DNA of 61,784 nt, filler included, from Globobulimina sp. (lineage: Eukaryota), in assembly GCA_003354225.1 (NCBI GenBank). It is 17 parts of 17 records of this genome, joined end to end, with 100 filler letters (N's around TTAATTAATTAA, not from the genome) between each part and the next. Parts side by side here need not be neighbours in the genome. Positions count along the whole stretch, not along the records: positions 43,695 to 47,233 come from PIVH01002555.1; 16 more parts are not named here. The stretch is one strand, 5' to 3'. Both the position numbers and the translations under genes were made by a program. The notes beneath the pieces are model-generated. The model was not told the origin of the DNA. It was given only the letters and a program-made list of their open reading frames with translations, and did not search any database. This document shows positions 27,426 to 61,784 of this stretch, in pieces. Position 1 is the first letter of the stretch, and every line of letters begins with the position of its first letter.

Positions 27426-27577
27426 TCATAATTTATCAAATATGTTTTTGTTTGTTTCTTTTTTTCAATTCCATTATTTTTTTTGTTGTTTGCTAACGAT
27501 ATAAAAACACTAAAAATAAATTTACGTTCCCATTACTTCACGGCTTAAACTTTGAAAACTTAATTATTTGCAACTGC

Positions 27578-28585
27578 ATGACTGACGTGCTGATGGCAGA
27601 CAACTTGCAACAACACATACCAATTCGAGAAAAAACACTAATAAATGGCTATATTCGAGCAATCGAGAAACAAAAACTGAAAAAAATTATTCCGTTCTGG
27701 ATCAATATGATTTGTCTCGATTATTACCACTCAATCAAATTATTATATCATTTCTCGCACGGTCTTTATTCATGCTTTAATTTTGTTGATTTGGACTTAA
27801 ATATACCATACATTTATAATATTGCCACATTGAATAAACATGGAATGCGCCAACACGAAATACGATGTTCCGGTATCGTACGGAATGCAGCCATGTATTT
27901 GCAAAAAGATTTTAAAATTCCGCAACAAATCAATAATATAAAAATAAAAAGTATGATTATGACCAATGGTAATTTTAATTTTTCAAACTCTCATCAATAT
28001 GATGTAATATTTAAATGTGGCGGATCTGTGAATGATTTCAATGCAAGTAACTATTGTTCCGCATTTATAATGTCTCCAATAACACTTTTAGAAACCCAAC
28101 AAACTTCATTTAATTGGGAATTACCATCATATCCACAGCCAATTGAATGTCACAGTATTGTATATGCAGAGAAATATGGTTTGCTATCAGTCGGTGGGTA
28201 TACGTCTGGCAAAGAGCGATTATTTTATCGTTTGGATTTTGAGAATTTCGGGAAAGAAAATGATTGGAAATGGGATGAAATGCCCTCTACAAAAGATAAA
28301 CGATCGTGGACCTCACTTGTGTGCATTGATGCGAATAGGTTTGTGGCTGTGGGTGGGTATGATGTAAATGTTGGTGCTCTTAATAGTGTTGAAATATTTA
28401 ATTTTAATGAAAATGAATGGGAATTGGGATATATTAAAAATATTAAACATAAGAGATATCGGCAAGGTATATTGTACGATGTATCGAGGATTTCACTGTG
28501 GTGGGTGTGGGTGGTGGTGGTGGGTGGTAGCGGTGGGGGGGTTGTGGGTGATATGTTGTGGCTGGGCAGTTGCCCGTTGACATGA
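27578..28585 (+). CDS. Kelch-like propeller protein with an N-terminal GYIR..IP..I..IC motif; 3' end probably disrupted after ~28480
   Basis: LLSVGGY, VAVGGYD..LNSVEIF..W. The sequence switches abruptly to GT-rich low complexity after 28480. Confidence 0.7.
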   Translation: MTDVLMADNLQQHIPIREKTLINGYIRAIEKQKLKKIIPFWINMICLDYYHSIKLLYHFSHGLYSCFNFVDLDLNIPYIYNIATLNKHGMRQHEIRCSGIVRNAAMYLQKDFKIPQQINNIKIKSMIMTNGNFNFSNSHQYDVIFKCGGSVNDFNASNYCSAFIMSPITLLETQQTSFNWELPSYPQPIECHSIVYAEKYGLLSVGGYTSGKERLFYRLDFENFGKENDWKWDEMPSTKDKRSWTSLVCIDANRFVAVGGYDVNVGALNSVEIFNFNENEWELGYIKNIKHKRYRQGILYDVSRISLWWVWVVVVGGSGGGVVGDMLWLGSCPLT

Positions 28586-32775: not shown

Positions 32776-33787
32776 AATCAGATTAAAATAATCGGGGAAA
32801 AAGAATCTAGATTCGCCACATTTTATCATCCATTTATTTAAATTGCTTACGCCTTGATCTAACGCAATAATTTGGATGATATCTTCATCGTATTTAACAC
32901 TTAAATCATAAACAAAATCTTCTCCTTTAACTTGCAAATCGACGAAGCTCTAAATAGTATCAATGCAAAAATATATAAATTAAGTACATATATATTAACT
33001 TAACCGGAACCAAATAACATGAATCTGTTAATTTTGACTTGCTCTCAACCACTTGATCCGATTGTATATCCTCTAAAATTCCTTTGCCTACGTTTTTAAT
33101 TAATTCTATGATAGGTGTCGGATCCATGACATTTCTCTCTAAAACACAACATAAATGTTTGGTTAATGTGCTGCCATCATAGTCAATTTGCGAAGTGGCA
33201 CCACGTGTGCATCCATGTAATATAATCTCGTTTTGCTTCCATTTCAAATCCAATTCTTTTGGGTGATAATCGCAATGTGGTTGCACATAATATTCCGTCC
33301 GGCACATATCTGCGATAAATAGCTTTGGATGTGCTGCTGCTTTGAATCCCACAACATTCGGATCTCTAAATTGGTCTGCAATATATTCTGTTGCCAAAAC
33401 ATTGTCATCTGATAATATGACATGTGAATATCCTGTCGGGGATGTGGCACCGTGCGACGATACGAAAATAATCAAACCATCCTTTGATTTATTTTGTTTG
33501 TATTCCTTCGTTGCCGTGGAAATCATATGAATCGCGCCATGATAGTTTAATGGTTTGTTTGGGTCATTAGCCATATCAATATTGTACCCATATTTTGCCA
33601 TACAGCGCTGAAATAAATCTAAATCTATGTATATATTGTTTAACGAGTTTTTTTTATCTTTATATTCACCAATCACAATAGTAATTATAAATGGATTTTG
33701 TATTATATTTCTTAAATATGTTATTTTATTGAATGTGCAATTGTTTAATAAATGAGAATTACTGCATTTGGGACATGCAATACTCAT
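32776..33787 (-). CDS. Caspase-like peptidase (C14 fold), 3'-partial; intron 32950-33004
   Basis: GLIIFVSSHG (catalytic His) and PKLFIADMCR (catalytic Cys); p10-like GSTLTKHL. N-terminal CxxC. Confidence 0.8.
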
Positions 33788-34149
33788 ATTTTAATTAGTT
33801 GTTTGTTTGGTTGTCTGGCGGGGATCGCGGGAAGTAAGTGTTGCTCAGTTAGAAAATGTTAAGAATCTTAATGCATTTGAATACTAATTATGAATGGGAC
33901 TGGTCTCCACTTTAATATTAATATTGACCTTCAATTTATACATGGCACATAGCATTAATTCGGAATGTGGTGTTAGACCAATTAACAATCGACAAACACG
34001 ATATGCATGCAAATATCTAACAAACGACTATGTGTATATCGATAAAAACACTTTACAATTGTCTGATTTTGTTGATGGACAAGGTTTAAAGTACCATAAT
34101 TACAATAATACACATTTATACATCGTTTTGGTTTAATTTATAATCAGTA

Positions 34150-35889
34150 TCAATGCCCTTCAACAGTGTAATTTCTCTCATTAGTATTCCCTTTTGTTTT
34201 ATGTATATTTGTGTTGTTTTCATCACTCTCCGTCTCCGAACTAGAAATATCATCATTTATTGTCATTTTATCTCTTTTGTCAATTGCAACCACACGTGCT
34301 TCATTTCCGATATCTGTTTGATTCACAATTGCCACAACATCTTCGTCTCCAGAATTGGGCAAATGACTAGAAATATCAATCAATTGCATATAATTATCCT
34401 GATTCATTTCATTGGTTCCATTTACGAGACAACGCTTTTTTATATACAAAGCTATAATTGCCACAATACAGCACACAAAAACACACAATATCACAACAAA
34501 TGCTGTTTTATAATTATTCGTTTCTGTTTCTGCGTTCTGTACGTTTGTAGTTGTGCTCATATCAATAATATTCACAGGCGATGGCCATGGCGTAATTCCT
34601 TGGATTGTAGGTTTCGGTGTTGGTAATTTGGATGGATTATATGTTGGATTATTGGTTGGTCCAATTGTTGTCACTCTTGTACGTGATTCACAAATAGTAC
34701 ACTAACAAAAGCTAATATAATTTGTCTTAACTGAGTTGGATATACTGTTGGAATATGGGTTGGAGATTCTGTTGGTTTATACGTTGATCTATTTGTATAT
34801 TTACAGGTGATTTTTAAGGTATATTAAATACATAGAAGTGCATATATGTCTTAACTGTGTTGGATAAAAAGTTGGAGTATTTGTTGGATTTATTGTTGGG
34901 TCAATCGTCGGATTCATTGTTGGATCAATCGTCGGATTACTTGTTTTCGTATTCAAATCACAGATTTCTATGTTTGATACAATATCCACTCCACGATCAT
35001 TCCCATTTGACCCACCAAATATGTATAGTTTGTTTCTGATAACATCCGCAGTAAAACCATATAAGGGCTGTATCATAGTTGTCTCGTTTGCTAGCATTAT
35101 TGCAATTAGATTAGTCTCATAAAAATATGTATAAATTGTATTCCGCGGTATCAGTGATTTTGAAGAACCACCAATGACATAAATATATCCATTCTTAGAT
35201 ACTGCCACTCCTTGACCTTCACCGATGGGTAAATCGCCGATCTGCAGCCAAACTTTGCTGAGAAGCTCATATTTATACATAGCAGTTCCAAAAGAGCCAA
35301 AAACAAATAAATCCGTTTTTACGATTGTACAATATTGTCGATCCCAGCCAGCAGTCTGCATAAAATCTATTTGTTCCCAATGCCATTCGTTAGTATTTAC
35401 ATTGTACGTTTGCAGTGCATATAAATGAGCAGATCCCGTGTACCCACCCACCATAAAAATATGTGTTCCATTTGTAGCCACACAGCCCTCAATGCCAGGT
35501 TGTGAAGGCACGTTAATGTTTGTGTTATCTAACCACTGTTCAGATATAGTGTCAAATAAATATATATTACAATCATACGTACCATCGTAAATACCAACAA
35601 AATAAACGATATTGTTGATAGTGACAGCATTGTTGGCAGGAGAGCTGAATTGCGTTGTTGGGGTGGTAATATGTAATGTAATCCATTCGTCAGTGGTTAC
35701 ATTCCATTTCACAATGGAGTTGAGAGAAACGTAAGATTTGGTTACTCCACCAAAAATATACACCGTTTGAGATGCGATATCATATGACATCTGGTGTTGA
35801 TAACTTGCAACTGGCAATGTTTGCGTGGCAAAATAACATGATGCAATGGCTTGAGACACCAGAAACGTTGCTATTATTATTGTATGCAT
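34150..35889 (-). CDS. Type I membrane protein with a Kelch propeller and PT-rich stalk; introns 34789-34855 and 34676-34731
   Basis: Signal peptide; repeated (Y/F)xxGG blades; PTxxPT repeats; TM AFVVILCVFVCCIVAIIALY; both introns restore the frame. Confidence 0.85.
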
Positions 35890-35954
35890 GCTTTTTCCAT
35901 ACTTTTCATTTACACATCAGAAAATCTACTCTGACACAAAAACCCCACCACAAA

Positions 35955-43694: not shown

Positions 43695-44739
43695 CCTGTG
43701 TTCATCCTTCGTAACGACCGCCATCTGAGCTCCTCCTCAGACTCACTCCATTTCAATTGAAATACGCCCGAATAGCTGCCGGCGCCCAGGAATATATCCG
43801 GCTGTGTGCCGCCTGCAGAGATTAAGCCGTGCGCACCGCAGAAAGACACGCAATTGCCATACGACGCGATGTCTGAAGGCAATGCCGGTAATACCCACTC
43901 ATAAGCTGTCATTGCTATGTATGATATGCATATCTTACATGTAATTTGTGTATGTATTTAGAAGCTAGTTAACTTTTGTTGGTATATACAGTGTGGTTTT
44001 TGGAAAGAAACTGCTTTTTGGGTATAATGATGGCTTTTGCGTCTCTGGTGTTTTGTGAGCCGCATTTAAAGATGGTATGATACTCATTTTGCGTGGTATT
44101 TATGTCGTATTTCTCGTTTATTTGCGAGGGAAATGTGATTTGTGAGGCGGAATATATACAAATGCCGTTTGTATCATAGCCGATACTTATATTTGGAGAG
44201 GATTGGTATTGCGTTTTATAAATGTTATGGATGTCAATGGCTTGGATGGCCGACGTCGATGATGCTATGAAACAAAATAATATACGTTCGATATAAATAA
44301 AATCAAAACAAATTTCTAAGATGTTTGATGGAATGTAGTTAGTGGATGAGGAGGAATGCGATGGTTTGCAATATATTCGAATCCAACCAAAAGTTAATAA
44401 TTTATGCATGCTGATGGTGTTTAAATGTCTGTCGGTGGTGTTGTTGCGTAAAGGCACTGCTTCTTTTTTTTCACGGTCGGCCAGCAGATCTTGGACCGAT
44501 GTGCTGTTGGATGGGATTAACGAGGATGTTAAGCGCATTTTGCCCTTGGCTCCCTTGGCGTGATCAGCTACATTGCCATTGCATTGGTGCTCGACAATTA
44601 GTTGTACGTCGTTGTTACTGTTTCGATCGCGACCACCATTTTTTAACTTGGATCCTATTCTCGATGCTATGTTAGTGTGGCCACTATCTCGTTTGTGCTT
44701 TTTCACTTTGTTGATGTTGTTACTTATTACTGTACCCAT
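43695..44739 (-). CDS. Kelch-like protein paralogous to 27578-28585; MGxxxS myristoylation motif; probable intron 43915-43973; 3'-partial
   Basis: Shares GWIR..IP..I..IC, IFKCG, W.LP and GL.S.GG with the gene at 27578. Confidence 0.7.
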
Positions 44740-44770
44740 TTAACTAAGGTTTTTGAGAGAAAATGTTATC

Positions 44771-46935
44771 ATGAGCTTGCATAGTGACACTAACAATGAC
44801 ACCACACCCGATGGAGAGACTGAAGGATTCCAGCACTTGTCTCCACATATTGAACATTCAGCACTTGTCGCCACATTAATGTCATTGGGTATAGCATCGC
44901 AAAATGCATGTATCAGAGCAACCGCTGCTGTCAATAATAAAAGTGTCGAAGAAGCAGTTGAATGGCTATTCTCTCATTTGAACGATACAGATATAAATGA
45001 GTCCATTCAGCCAAATATTGAGTCATATTCATTAAAACAATGGTGTTTAGCGAATGGATTTTCAATTGATTTATGTCACCGACTACAACGTGCTCCACTT
45101 TATATTGATACATTGCAAAAATTACAATTTTTAACATCTGATGAGGATATTAACGATTTGGTGCAAGAATTAGGCTTACGATTTGGTAAAAAAGCTGCCT
45201 TTGTCCAAGCAATGCAAAAACTTAAAGTTAACTCACCGTATTTATTTATTACAGTGCAAGGATAGTGAATGTACTGTACATTACATTTTTACACAACAAG
45301 GAAAAGGATATATCACCGGAAGAACTATTAATGGACCAAATTCACACAGAAAGCAAGAAAAACCCTCCTGAACCTTGGCATTGTTCACTTTGCGAATATA
45401 CCAATATTGGTACAGATGAACTTTGTTTAATGTGCAGTTCCGCAAAACCTCCAAAAACTGCTCCAAAGTTATTGATATATATTATCTAATTTAAAAATAT
45501 CTTTTTTACAATTTCCCATTATATTTTTTTTGAAAGAAATACCAAATTAATGCAATCAGAAACGGCGATTGAAACAATTGTAAAACAAGAAAACAAGGAA
45601 ACGAAGCAAGATGAGGCTGCAATGAATGATTCCGCATTGCATTGTACCCGTTGCAGTCAGGGATTCCATAAAAACGACTGGAGTCAACATAACGTAATGT
45701 TGGATGCTAAGAATGGAATGGCTTATACGCATTTAATGTGTCCAACATTGGACAGCAACGTCAACATTTCGATGAATGCAACCACACCAAATCAATTTAT
45801 ATCTGATCATAAAACTCCTGATCGCAAAATGCAGCAACGAATTTATAAAAAACCAAACAACACAAAACCTAAACCCGTTCAGGAGAAGAAAGCAGCAAAA
45901 ACGGATAAAAAAGCAAACAAAACAAAATCTAAACTTGTGGAGGATAAGAAAGAAGCAAAAATTGATGATTCCAGATTGCGTTGCAATCGTTGCAAAGAAG
46001 AGTTAAGTGACAGAGACTGGAACAGACAGAATGTTGTCATGGATCAAGATGTATTTTATACACATTTAATGTGTCCAAAATTAAATAAAAAGAAAAAGAA
46101 AACAAAATTAAAAGCGAATCCAAAATCTATCCTTAAAGATATTAATAAAAAGTTTGTAGAGCATAAATCTTTTGGCGATATGACATTTGCGCCAAACCCT
46201 GATTTAACAAAGGATGAAATTGATGGTGAATGTCATATTCGTGATGGTATGATACCTTACAGAACTTTACAGAAATCTAATTTTTTGAAGTTGTATGATT
46301 CAACCAAAGCTGCTCCAAAGTATGACGATATAATTCATCATTTACCTGATGATTTGCTCGATGATTTCAAAGAGTGTTATCAGACAATTTGTGGTCAATA
46401 TACTGACCATATTGTTGGCAGAACCTGTGTTAAGGCCTGGACTCATGAAGAAAATGAATTTACTGCGTCTCGGTTTTATTGCAAATTGAATGCTGCGCTG
46501 TTATCTGACCATAGCGAGTTATTGAAAGAGTGGATGTTATTAATTCGCGGTTTGAATAAGTTTTTGGTGAATACGAGGCCAAAGGAAAAGATTGTTTGTT
46601 ATAGGAAATCTGATTTAAGTTTAGCTCAATTTAAGAGAATTGAAGTTGGTAAGAAATATAGAATAGCAATGTATACGGCGACATCAACGAATAAGGAGTT
46701 TGTGAAGCAATGGAATAGAAACAGTGGCACATTTTATTGGATATTTAATGTTCCAGCAAATTGCTATAATGCATGTTGTATTGCAGAATATTCGTATCAC
46801 GGGGAAGAGAGTGAAGTGTTAATGCCGCCATATTCTTCCATACAGATTGTGTCTAAAAAAGCTGATGGTTATATAACCGCAAACGTTTTGGATAATAAAA
46901 ATTGTTCAATGGATTTACCTACAATTGTTTCATAA
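44771..46935 (+). CDS. UBA - SAM - RanBP2/NZF finger - 2x C2HC repeat - R-S-E ADP-ribosyltransferase; introns 45227-45300 and 45468-45536
   Basis: UBA LVATLMSLGI..A..A..N.SVEEAVEWL; SAM LKQW..L.FG....F; WHCSLCEYTN....CLMC; two CxxC..DW...NV..THLMCP repeats; ART CYRK, YTATST, EESEVL. Both introns restore the frame. Confidence 0.8.
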
Positions 46936-47709
46936 GCTAGCTTTGGTTACATGTATGACGAATTTACAAAACTTTCTTGAATTTTTAGCACATAGTTCTT
47001 TGCATATCCATCATGGCAGTTGCTTTGAATAATGCAGTTTTACGAACATTTAAATGTGTCGATTCAACAATTTCTCCAAGCCAATACACTCAATGTTTAT
47101 GCGGTGTGGATAATGATATTCTGCCATTGCAATGTGATCACATTATAATCATTTCATTGCCGTACAAAAAAAACGACATTAAAAAGGCAATGAAAGAGTT
47201 CATTACCACAGAATTTAGTGATGGTTCAATGATNNNNNNNNNNNNNNNNNNNNNNNNNNNNNNNNNNNNNNNNNNNNTTAATTAATTAANNNNNNNNNNN
47301 NNNNNNNNNNNNNNNNNNNNNNNNNNNNNNNNNATAAAAACACGAAAAAATAAAAAAAAAAAAAAAAAAGAAAAACACAACAACAAAAAATAAAAATAAA
47401 AAAAAAAAAAGGAAAACAAAAAAGAATGCATAAAAAATATTTTCAAACAGATAATTTAAAAATCAATTCAATTATATTTGAAGCGATCTAAATATCTTTT
47501 TCATGAATTTTGATGTACAAAATACGAATTTATGTCATGTCTTTATGTGAGTTTAGATTGAAAATAATATATAGGGAAAACCAACAACATTGCCATAAAC
47601 ATAATAAATAAATAAATAAATATTCCATTTAATGGCAGAACAAGAAAAGGGGAGCACGTGAAACTAAATAATACGAATACGTTACAACTATAGCTAAAAT
47701 TATTAAGAT

Positions 47710-57907: not shown

Positions 57908-58791
57908 TTGACTTTTTGCTTCCTACACAATGGTCGACGGAGAGAAATACTGACTCAGAGTATTACAAAAACATTTGTATAAAGAAATGTCCGCTGCCTG
58001 TATTATATGCCCAAACATATGTCAATTGAAGAGCATGAGGTCATTTCGTCAAAAGTGTTCTATTTTTTGTGTACCAAAATTTTAGTCGTCTCGAAAACAT
58101 TGTTTCCCAGTAATGTTTCTACCACTTTAGAATTGTGTACAACTATCNNNNNNNNNNNNNNNNNNNNNNNNNNNNNNNNNNNNNNNNNNNNTTAATTAAT
58201 TAANNNNNNNNNNNNNNNNNNNNNNNNNNNNNNNNNNNNNNNNNNNNCTAAATTATTGCCGAATACAAACAACAAACAGACGCATCTTAATCTTCACTGA
58301 TTCATTATACAATTTCCTCCCTCTGATAATTACACCAAAACGAAAAGAAAAAAATCCAAACTCAGTTCTATTCAAAAATACACAAAATTACCTCAAAAAT
58401 AATAATATAATACTTTGGAAAGTCAAATCACATACCAAACCCAAACAACAACCATTCAATCAGATCGCTGATAATTTAGCCGAAGTTGGCAGAATGCATC
58501 CACGTAATTCATGTTTTATAATCACAAACTTTAATTCCATCCGATATGCCAAATATAAATCCTTCCACTATACAAGGGGTATTAGACCCCAACAACTTTT
58601 ATCTCTCACCAGGATGTTTAAGCAATTGGTGAGCATGGAGCCAGACTTAGACCCTGGCTGAATGTTCTCCCACTACTTACAAAGAGGCAAAGAATACATT
58701 TGGCTCAATGACCTTAAAAGTATCATTATTTTCCGACGATTACCAGGCTGGTAAGAGTTATGCCGGTTTGATAATATATGGAATTGCAGGT

Positions 58792-60013: not shown

Positions 60014-61784
60014 CTAAATCGATGGCAAAGTAGGCGCAGCAACATTCACAGCGGTTTCTTGTTTAATCCGATAATCCACTTCGCCATTATGTTGATACGC
60101 ATTTTGTGTTTGTACCGGTTGTTTTGCTGTTTGCGTCACAGCTTTTAATGGCTGTGGTGTATGACTCATCACATTGCCATCTGGCTTGACAAGTAAATAT
60201 TTATTAAATCTGTATTTCGCTTCACGCTCTAATGAATTTGCAAAATTGCCGTTAAATGAACTGAAATATACCAATAAATTGCTGGCCACTGTACAAATAT
60301 CGCAATTCGGATCTATACTAAGAATGGAAAGACAGTCCGTAATGATGTCTTTAAACGTTTCGTCATCATTATCATTCCACGCATTTGCTATCAACAAATC
60401 AAACCACTCTCTACAATCATTGCCAGGCACTTCCACATTATTTATGCCATTCCGATATTGCTGTAATTTATTATCATATTTATTTATGTCAATATTAAAC
60501 ATATTATTGACAAATGCTACATGCGAATTAAAAATAATATGTTGAAATATTAATTTGGCGGCAAAAAACCTGACATGCGCTTGAGTCACACATTCGATGT
60601 TCACCTTTTCGTTTAAGAAGCCGCATAACGATATAGTCGCAACCTTATTATGTTTATTTATCACCGCCGTAACAATCTTATTAATACATTGACGACACAT
60701 ATCATGGAATTTCATCGCTCGATTATTGTCCAATAATAAAAACAAATTATCCAATATTTCAGGTAATGAATTCTCAATCAATAGTACAATTTGGTCACCT
60801 TTCAGCTTATTTAAACAATATAGAAATATATCCGCTATTTGCCGAATGCCTTTAATCCGCACATTGTATTCCCTGTAAATATAGTCTTCATGCAATATTT
60901 GTTCCGCATATGCGGATAATAATACTTTGCCATTATCTGTAGATATATTCATATAATCTAAATTCGCATAGATTTCGTCCATGGCTCGCAATCTATGTTT
61001 AATACTACCATGGCCACCTAATAATTTCTCAAACGCATCATCTAAATCCACAGTTGGTGTCATTGGTTGCTGTTGTTTTTGCGGTCTTTGTTGTTTGGCG
61101 TAGTCGGCGCCGTATATCTGTTTTAAAATAGTTTTTCTGTGCGCCATCAATGAAATACCCATTTGTTTTAACATGTTTTCATCCACAGTGTATAAACCAG
61201 ATAAATCATCACCAAATCCATAATTTACAAAATTACGATAATACTCACCCAATGCCATATTATTTAAAAAGGTTTGTAATTCCTTTGTTTTTAGTTTTGG
61301 CGCTGCTGTTTTGGTGCTGCCTTTTTTTGGTGATTGGCATTGTTGATTCTTTGTTCGGTTCATAGTAATCATTGGTTTATTTATCTCGCCACTCATTAAT
61401 GATTCTAATGCAAGCTGTAAATTACCATTCGATGCTTTTATAGCCGCTAAAGATTGGTCTTTGTCCCAGCCCATTGATGTTAACTGGCTCACTAAATATT
61501 GATATTTGGTGGAACTGGATCGTTTGCTAAATAATTGCTGTGGATCGATCACTAATTCATTGGTTGAATATCTCTTTGCAATTTCAATTTTTTCACTTTT
61601 TTTTTCTTCCGTATTCTTCCGTTTTGCTTTTGGTCTGTTTATAATTTGACCGGTCACGTCTTTTTTTGGTGGTGGCACATAATCGCTGGTGTCTGGAGCT
61701 TTTTTAATTAATGCTTTGGCCTCACCCCAGCTCACTTTTGCACCATTTTTCTTTGCAAATGCTTTTTGTTTGAGATGTTTATTA
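60014..61784 (-). CDS. UBA - SAM - helical (HEAT/TOG-like) protein, 5'-partial
   Basis: UBA LVSQLTSMGW....LAAIKASNGNLQLALESL; SAM FL....LGEY...F...G..L..MGISLMAHRKTILKQI; helical repeats follow. Confidence 0.75.
   Translation of the reverse strand, partial: NKHLKQKAFAKKNGAKVSWGEAKALIKKAPDTSDYVPPPKKDVTGQIINRPKAKRKNTEEKKSEKIEIAKRYSTNELVIDPQQLFSKRSSSTKYQYLVSQLTSMGWDKDQSLAAIKASNGNLQLALESLMSGEINKPMITMNRTKNQQCQSPKKGSTKTAAPKLKTKELQTFLNNMALGEYYRNFVNYGFGDDLSGLYTVDENMLKQMGISLMAHRKTILKQIYGADYAKQQRPQKQQQPMTPTVDLDDAFEKLLGGHGSIKHRLRAMDEIYANLDYMNISTDNGKVLLSAYAEQILHEDYIYREYNVRIKGIRQIADIFLYCLNKLKGDQIVLLIENSLPEILDNLFLLLDNNRAMKFHDMCRQCINKIVTAVINKHNKVATISLCGFLNEKVNIECVTQAHVRFFAAKLIFQHIIFNSHVAFVNNMFNIDINKYDNKLQQYRNGINNVEVPGNDCREWFDLLIANAWNDNDDETFKDIITDCLSILSIDPNCDICTVASNLLVYFSSFNGNFANSLEREAKYRFNKYLLVKPDGNVMSHTPQPLKAVTQTAKQPVQTQNAYQHNGEVDYRIKQETAVNVAAPTLPSI

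Follow-up and report, generated by a model that had tools for sequence, protein, structure and literature searches.

The window analysed here, 61,784 nucleotides (nt) joined from 17 records of the Globobulimina sp. genome assembly GCA_003354225.1, contains on its + strand (44771 to 46935, within record PIVH01002555.1) a gene for a 673-amino-acid (aa) protein in which a UBA domain, a probable SAM-like domain, a RanBP2-type zinc finger and two C2HC modules are followed by a predicted ADP-ribosyltransferase (ART) domain of the R-S-ExE (cholera-toxin-like) clade. It is a three-exon, spliced and expressed nuclear gene of Globobulimina, the second of its two introns being predicted. Our proposal, which we put forward with about even confidence, is that its product is an intracellular arginine-type mono-ART whose N-terminal modules, the UBA domain foremost, decide where it acts. 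The features of the gene are listed below; residue counts refer to the 120 family rows with at least 150 profile positions.

44771 to 45226, + strand: exon 1 (aa 1-152; start codon, UBA, SAM-like), from the open reading frame and ATG, with the 3' end set by the spliced contig X2 record 11
45227 to 45300, + strand: intron 1, 74 nt, GT..AG, phase 0, excised in X2 record 11 and absent in the diverged-copy contigs too
45301 to 45467, + strand: exon 2 (aa 153-208), from the open reading frame, with the 5' end from the spliced contig and the 3' end predicted (GT donor, frame)
45468 to 45536, + strand: intron 2, 69 nt, GT..AG, phase 2, predicted, restoring the frame past the TAA at 45487-89
45537 to 46935, + strand: exon 3 (aa 208-673 and stop), from the open frame 45490-46935
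44861 to 45001, + strand: UBA domain (aa 31-77) of the USP5/USP13/UBP14 type, from Pfam UBA_7 and PDB phmmer
45032 to 45226, + strand: SAM-like five-helix domain (aa 88-152), from the predicted fold
45376 to 45435, + strand: RanBP2-type zinc finger (W178, C180, C183, C194, C197), from Pfam and PDB phmmer
45643 to 45741, + strand: C2HC module 1 (aa 244-276), C-x2-C-x25-H-x2-C, from the pattern
45982 to 46074, + strand: C2HC module 2 (aa 357-387), C-x2-C-x23-H-x2-C, from the pattern, retained in the diverged-copy contigs and in the homologue P0001
46150 to 46932, + strand: predicted ART domain of the R-S-ExE clade (aa 413-673), from Pfam, model, Foldseek, VIA and profile
46603 to 46605, + strand: catalytic-type Arg R564 (in CYRKS), in register with the YR of Vis, and conserved as Arg in 117 of the 120 family rows
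46684 to 46686, + strand: conserved Ser S591 of the S-T-S-like strand (A-T-S), equivalent to the third residue of the Vis S-T-S; occupied by Ser in 104 and by Thr in 13 of the 120 rows
46807 to 46815, + strand: E-x-E motif E632-S-E634, aligned with the E-A-E of Vis; the first Glu is conserved in 114 of the 120 rows (Gln in 4) and the second in 118

Gene structure and catalytic domain

The Pfam ART family (PF01129) matches the C-terminal domain with 27.1 bits (cutoff 22.3), and the structural model of this domain, built on a 74-row alignment, has a pLDDT of 94.5 and a pTM of 0.90. Searched with Foldseek, the model gave 146 matches at E <= 0.001, the top rows being all R-S-E ARTs, with Vis (4xzk, E 4.4e-10), C3, Plx2a, HopU1, ExoS and ART2.2 as the best. 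Comparison by VIA placed rat ART2.2 at the head (Z 16.7, root-mean-square deviation (rmsd) 3.0, 194 residues aligned), followed by XopAI (16.4), the PAAR toxin/immunity pair 6DRH (16.4), HopU1 (15.9), ExoS (15.4) and Vis (14.4), and overall the Z scores lay between 12.5 and 16.7 over 146-196 residues. The family profile searched against the PDB retrieved 'NAD(+)--arginine ADP-ribosyltransferase Vis' (E 1.4e-12) with YR, S-T-S and E-x-E in register. The H-Y-[EDQ] (ARTD) pattern is absent from the domain, which matches the R-S-E members by both profile and fold. An ART with an Arg, an S-T-S-like strand and E-x-E had been proposed in a first-pass annotation of this DNA; the positions given there (R564 at 46603, TATST from 46675, E-S-E at 46807-46815) are correct, and the fold comparison agrees with the assignment. 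As judged from profile and fold, the domain is a member of the R-S-ExE clade that retains the Arg, the Ser and both Glu of the active site, and it is predicted to be active. The E-x-E form is typical of arginine-specific members of the clade, and from this motif and the nearest structural and sequence relatives we infer that the domain would catalyse arginine-directed mono-ADP-ribosylation. The clade definitions of ARTs are given in PMC3482391, and PMC9027952 describes ARTCs as modifying mainly arginine.

The extreme C-terminal tail (46915-46932) is also conserved: it reads LPTIVS in the window and LPAIVA, LPTICA, LPTIVV or LATILA in relatives, was seen in P0001, P0003, P0004, P0005 and P0103, and forms a confident strand in the model.

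The gene starts with an ATG at 44771, which is preceded by an in-frame stop codon at 44741-43, and ends with a TAA at 46933-35. The three open frames on the + strand (44744-45265, 45232-45489 and 45490-46935) join through two frame-restoring introns, as the first-pass annotation had it with correct start and end coordinates, and the 2022 nt of joined exons translate into 673 codons and a stop with zero internal stops. Both introns share the donor context AAA|GTTA, and a T-rich tract lies ahead of the AG of intron 2. Contigs from the sequencing runs X1 to X3, which are not on record as RNA and which we take to be RNA by guess, were placed on 44600-47100; a fourth run, X4, shares 0.98 of the words but gave 0 contigs. 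In X2 record 11, which is near-identical to the window gene (1 differing letter in 117), 45226 is followed directly by 45301, which is the exact removal of intron 1; the spliced mRNA anticipated by the first-pass annotation is thus supported at intron 1, whereas intron 2 is bridged by none of the contigs. The indels listed relative to the contigs each sum to a multiple of three (+6; -1 with -2; -3; -3), and one further contig, X1 record 6, spans 45634-45826 in the region of C2HC module 1.

The 673-aa protein shows neither a signal peptide nor a transmembrane segment, in keeping with the earlier statement that it lacks a signal peptide and a glycosylphosphatidylinositol (GPI) tail: its first 30 residues are polar, hydrophobicity is lacking at the C-terminal tail, and the highest mean hydropathy over 19 residues is 1.35, located inside the UBA domain. 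Because both termini are without hydrophobic stretches and the partner domains are of cytosolic or nuclear types, the protein is predicted to be soluble and intracellular.

The N-terminal modules

The UBA domain matches Pfam UBA_7 with an E value of 4.7e-14 (52.5 bits against a cutoff of 27), and the closest solved UBAs found by PDB phmmer are those of USP5 (3ihp, E 3.8e-9) and of 'ubiquitin-specific protease 14, putative' (1vek, E 7.4e-9). For the region that follows, the AlphaFold model, based on an alignment of two rows, consists of five helices with a pLDDT of 77.4. The first 14 Foldseek rows retrieved with this model are all SAM domains, with a best E value of just 0.31; in VIA, SAM domains fill the first 25 rows, led by the EphA7 SAM with 65 of 77 residues aligned, an rmsd of 2.1 and a Z of 9.0, a value which by itself is not decisive for a small helical domain. 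Atlas provided leads only (0.84-0.87) for this region, which is 64% identical to the matching region of P0001, a homologue from the foraminifer Bolivina argentea described below. We conclude from the model that aa 88-152 probably adopt a SAM-like fold.

The RanBP2-type finger fits the pattern W-x-C-x2-C-x10-C-x2-C and matches Pfam Zn_ribbon_RanBP with an E value of 6.8e-6, its 25.7 bits being slightly below the 27-bit cutoff. The motif C-x2-C ... DW.xQN ... Y.HLMC is common to the two C2HC modules and to P0001, and lysine-rich linkers such as KKKKK lie beside both modules (71 Lys among 673 residues overall). Searches with the C2HC module returned only sub-threshold rows in Pfam (zf-C2HE, E 0.024; PHDvar_NSD, E 0.031), nothing meaningful in PDB phmmer and scores of at most 0.83 in Atlas, and a word-index search with residues 130-190 of exon 3 gave no match at E <= 0.1. 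As far as these comparisons go, the module is unclassified, matching no family, solved chain or Atlas cluster meaningfully; it may resemble a half-LIM or pre-PHD knuckle.

The first-pass annotation had named all of these modules and had described the protein as ubiquitin-reading. Its UBA domain is well founded, with USP5 as the nearest UBA, and its two C2HC repeats are real and mutually alike by pattern. The SAM domain was recovered as a five-helix fold in the model and failed to match a SAM family in Pfam, and the finger has the RanBP2 pattern and is nearer to Nup153 than to ubiquitin-binding NZFs, the T-F signature of which it lacks. The putative reading of ubiquitin is accordingly left to the UBA domain, which resembles those of USP5 and USP13.

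The window holds a second gene with a UBA domain (E 5e-6) followed by a SAM domain (SAM_2, E 7.1e-7), at 60014-61783 on the - strand and continuing past the window end, with about 340 residues after the SAM domain that match no Pfam family. We considered this gene as kin of exon 1 and rejected it, as there is no sequence similarity between them (BLASTP E 16; tblastn). An N-terminal unit of this order, UBA followed by SAM, may recur in Globobulimina.

Relatives, second copy and surroundings

An exhaustive profile-free search yielded 201 representatives of the ART family at E <= 0.001, 81 of them at E <= 1e-10. The layout UBA-SAM-ART was met in only one other protein among the 150 listed of these representatives and in the relatives search, namely P0001 (EukProt, Bolivina argentea transcriptome, 514 aa), in which a single chain combines UBA_7, a SAM-like domain, one C2HC module and the ART; it has no RanBP2 finger, and its identity to the window protein is 59% for exon 3 and 75% for the ART. 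P0001 was also the sole match when the N-terminal module was searched among longer proteins. Twenty proteins were looked up; named relatives among them, all protists, are P0006 and P0019 (Bolivina argentea), P0017 (the diplonemid Sulcionema specki) and P0138 (the dinoflagellate Fugacium kawagutii), and the remaining relatives are metagenome or run assemblies. P0137, a Tudor protein of Papaver somniferum, does not match the family profile and was discarded as a chance hit. A metagenome scan with the exon-3 protein found no relatives, and one with alignment A3 found two distant ones (L001, L002) on contigs of 1.1-1.6 kb, too short for architecture.

The 150 listed representatives were scanned with Pfam (50 at E <= 1e-3, 100 at E <= 1e-5). 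Ubiquitin-type modules were found in one of them, P0103 (NCBI source, 799 aa), which carries UBA_4 and CUE repeats; other partners of the ART are Roc-COR, ankyrin, fn3, DUF4116, Vint/Hint, ExoX-like_C, PAH_ZNF598, zf_CCCH and, sub-threshold, WWE. In a quick tree of 103 rows, for which the careful search was unfinished, the window ART pairs with that of P0001 (SH-aLRT 98), and P0103 is located on another branch of the same 19-row clade (95). Although their ARTs thus fall into one clade, the UBA-like types of P0103 differ from those of the window protein, and P0103 has neither a SAM domain nor fingers. Because of the different branch and the different UBA-like types, P0103 represents a separate fusion. 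The UBA label requires at least two changes on the quick tree, and a UBA-like partner therefore joined the ART family more than once. Our literature search, which did not cover a review on the natural history of ADP-ribosyltransferases, found neither a UBA-SAM-ART protein nor a foraminiferal ART described. That the architecture had been put down as unrecognised is fair, with P0001 as the only other case in the architecture search and no paper on it found, but its ART comes from a sizeable family with many intracellular partners.

A copy of the gene that is about 94% identical (about 6% diverged) and has no intron 1 is contained in X1 record 5, X2 record 10 and X3 record 14, and was found in runs of organisms A and B. 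The last of these contigs (1850 nt) covers 44789-46919, with UBA, SAM-like domain, finger, C2HC and ART on one molecule. The diverged copy joins 45434 to 45907, with 472 nt absent and 13 other letters between, which is in frame by hand reading; intron 2 and C2HC module 1 are gone at this junction, and the finger runs directly into C2HC module 2. The junction says nothing on intron 2 of the window copy. As it drops C2HC module 1, the diverged copy is a shorter paralogue or allele, and two gene forms, with one or two C2HC modules, therefore coexist. In X1 record 4 and X3 record 14, the diverged copy also has 245-255 nt of 5' sequence before 44789 which are absent upstream of the gene in the window; it therefore has another 5' exon or another genomic context.

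The window is AT-rich (GC 0.27-0.43) and contains eukaryotic short-intron genes, among them genes for a dynein heavy chain, a Pol beta/lambda-like protein, a lipase, a RabGAP-TBC, a caspase-like and a Kelch protein. A head-to-head neighbour on the - strand (43969-44739) has its ATG 31 nt from that of the ART gene and is a 256-aa open reading frame that begins with MG and matches no Pfam family; in runs that cover the ART gene at a depth of 20-34, its contigs reach 308-448. Elsewhere, an open reading frame with a caspase domain (Peptidase_C14, E 1.3e-13) adjoins Kelch-repeat open reading frames (32963-33790, - strand; 34804-35916, - strand; 27497-28582, + strand). Runs of N around the gene region are found at about 43640, at 47214-47300 (280 nt past the stop codon) and at 58190-58250.

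Explanations weighed and known systems compared

According to our proposal, the ART would be an active mono-ADP-ribosyltransferase that depends on nicotinamide adenine dinucleotide (NAD+) and acts on arginine side chains. Docking on ubiquitin, single or in chains, would be the task of the UBA domain, avidity or further partners would come from the SAM-like domain and the fingers, and the enzyme would then mark proteins near the ubiquitin signal. Recruitment to ubiquitin through the UBA domain is the part that we infer more weakly; in its favour, this UBA (E 4.7e-14) is nearest to that of USP5, and P0103 of the same clade carries UBA_4/CUE.

A number of observations weigh against this proposal. 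With respect to the gene, intron 2 is predicted only, since no contig of the window copy crosses 45440-45607, and the RNA nature of the runs X1 to X3 is a guess. With respect to ubiquitin, the M-G-F present in the UBA loops of USP5 and the 1vek protease is L-G-I in the window protein, and the Gly of this L-G-I is replaced by Asn in the copy of organism A (GG>AA at 44888-89). Pfam gives no SAM family at E <= 1. The best solved relatives of the RanBP2 finger are the Nup153 fingers (PDB phmmer E 8.9e-6), with the finger of HOIL-1L (RBCK1 / 'UbcM4... interacting protein 3') at E 0.21-0.86 and that of TRABID at E 0.54; Nup153 fingers bind Ran, while HOIL-1L and TRABID fingers bind ubiquitin. Ubiquitin-binding NZFs carry a signature of T-F followed by a hydrophobic residue, and the finger of the window protein reads C-E-Y-T-N and C-L-M-C, that is, E-Y at the T-F positions, with Thr replaced by Glu and the aromatic residue and the Met present. 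Moreover, the RanBP2 finger is absent from P0001 and C2HC module 1 from the diverged copy, and as each is missing in one relative, neither is essential to the design. Among the 32 scorable codons that differ between the window gene and the diverged copy, 21 changes are non-synonymous and 11 synonymous, which suggests weak constraint on the targeting half; the comparison comprises the 36 coding differences listed, all before 46129, and thus covers the N-terminal two thirds of the gene, not the ART domain. Finally, the S-T-S strand of the ART reads A589-T590-S591, with Ala at the first position in 93 and Ser in 21 of the 120 family rows.

It is extremely unlikely in our view that the gene model is wrong and that the UBA-SAM and ART parts are separate genes or a chimeric assembly. 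This would fit with intron 2 being predicted only and with a Met at 45550 that could begin a shorter protein, but UBA-SAM is linked to the ART within single contigs of the diverged copy and, independently, in the homologue P0001, and distance and phases suit two ordinary short introns. Very unlikely, too, is an ART that is no transferase but a pseudoenzyme, an NAD+ glycohydrolase or a scaffold, with the protein acting mainly via its binding modules. Such a loss of activity would account for the Ala in place of the first Ser of S-T-S and for the modest Pfam score of 27.1 bits; however, this Ala is the norm in the family rather than a private loss, and the window protein, P0001 and 104-118 of the 120 relatives retain the Arg, the Ser and the two Glu. 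A nuclear or nucleic-acid-associated enzyme, in which the lysine linkers together with the three zinc modules would serve either for binding to DNA, RNA or chromatin or for nuclear import, is in our estimation unlikely. Here the UBA domain would be a general protein-contact module, and the enzyme would modify proteins of chromatin or bound to RNA, or a nucleic acid. The abundance of lysine, with KKKKK-type runs beside both C2HC modules, the proximity of the finger to those of Nup153 and the faint, sub-threshold likeness of the C2HC module to a variant PHD finger (E 0.031) and a C2HE finger (E 0.024) are in line with this idea, but the Pfam, PDB, Atlas and word-index searches found no nucleic-acid-binding family at a significant level, and E-x-E and the nearest relatives indicate arginine in proteins.

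Two further explanations concern the role and the substrate of the enzyme. There is a small chance that it is a conflict or immune effector, that is, a domesticated toxin ART restrained by the N-terminal half and released on infection or damage, a role that can overlap with the one favoured above. Fast-varying partners in the family (Roc-COR, ankyrin, fn3, Vint/Hint, DUF4116) and long tree branches speak for this explanation, as do bacterial toxins among the nearest solved relatives and two diverged, expressed copies with unlike middle parts; in addition, eukaryotic ARTs have been proposed to be acquired from bacterial toxin systems (PMC3482391). On the other hand, no immunity-like or ADP-ribosyl-hydrolase neighbour was detected among 35 long open reading frames scanned elsewhere in the window. 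A slim chance remains with ubiquitin itself as the substrate, held by the UBA domain, and perhaps the finger, for ADP-ribosylation on arginine; the protein would then be an endogenous switch blocking or re-routing ubiquitin signalling. A catalytic clade and motif of the SidE type and a ubiquitin-binding-type domain are indeed combined in one chain, SidE ADP-ribosylates Arg42 of ubiquitin (PMC10951314), and the separate UBA_4/CUE fusion within the same ART clade suggests a recurring tie to ubiquitin-like ligands. Yet Pfam detects no phosphodiesterase domain or other part of SidE, the nearest proteins by sequence and fold are Vis, ART2.2, XopAI, HopU1 and ExoS, and a reader next to an enzyme would more often direct it to neighbouring proteins than to the mark that is read. 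Similarly slim is the prospect that Foraminifera, and perhaps other protists with UBA/CUE-ART fusions, have an endogenous enzyme for attaching ADP-ribose to arginine residues of ubiquitin or of its chains. If they do, it would be a native eukaryotic counterpart of SidE chemistry, and arginine-ADP-ribosyl-ubiquitin would be a normal regulatory mark and not just a pathogen's trick.

Returning to the favoured intracellular arginine-type mono-ART with N-terminal targeting modules, the best structural match among known systems is provided by the vertebrate ecto-ARTs (ARTC; rat ART2.2, PDB 1GXY; PF01129), with which the window protein shares the R / S / E-x-E pattern. Identity to ecto-ARTs is only about 15-16%, however, and the window protein carries UBA, SAM-like and zinc-finger modules instead of secretion signals. 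According to PMC9027952, the ARTCs of mammals carry a signal peptide and are either secreted or anchored by GPI, whereas this feature of the vertebrate ecto-ART subfamily (ARTC1-5) is absent from the window protein. The best sequence match of the family profile is Vis of Vibrio splendidus (4XZJ/4XZK), with the motifs in register, and Vis, ExoS/ExoT, HopU1, XopAI and the 6DRH PAAR toxin reach Z scores of 14-16 at identities of 14-19%. In contrast to these arginine-ART toxins, which are secreted or injected bacterial proteins, the window protein is encoded by a spliced eukaryotic gene and contains eukaryotic signalling domains. The mono-ART of Legionella SidE belongs to the same ART clade and acts on Arg42 of ubiquitin (PMC10951314), but no specific relationship to it was detected, and none of the phosphodiesterase, deubiquitinase or other domains of SidE was found by Pfam in the window protein, whose putative link to ubiquitin is through the fused UBA domain instead; SidE-family chains do not occur among the PDB matches listed, which leaves room for kinship.

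PARP10 (UIM and ART) and tankyrase (SAM and ART) follow a like design logic, in which a ubiquitin-reading or polymer-forming module is fused to an ART: PARP10 binds K63-linked ubiquitin, and the SAM domain of tankyrase polymerises. The catalytic domains of these two enzymes are of the H-Y-E (diphtheria-toxin-like, ARTD) clade, in contrast to the R-S-E clade of the window protein; UIM and SAM are named among the partner domains of ARTDs in PMC9027952. The reach of the comparison is limited, as the exact layout comes from one lineage which is hard to work with. Cholera-toxin-like ARTs are extracellular in mammals, and the Globobulimina gene would be an intracellular-looking member of this group tied to ubiquitin-type and SAM-type modules, and might serve as a natural model in which to study arginine ADP-ribosylation inside cells and the interplay of ubiquitin with ADP-ribose.

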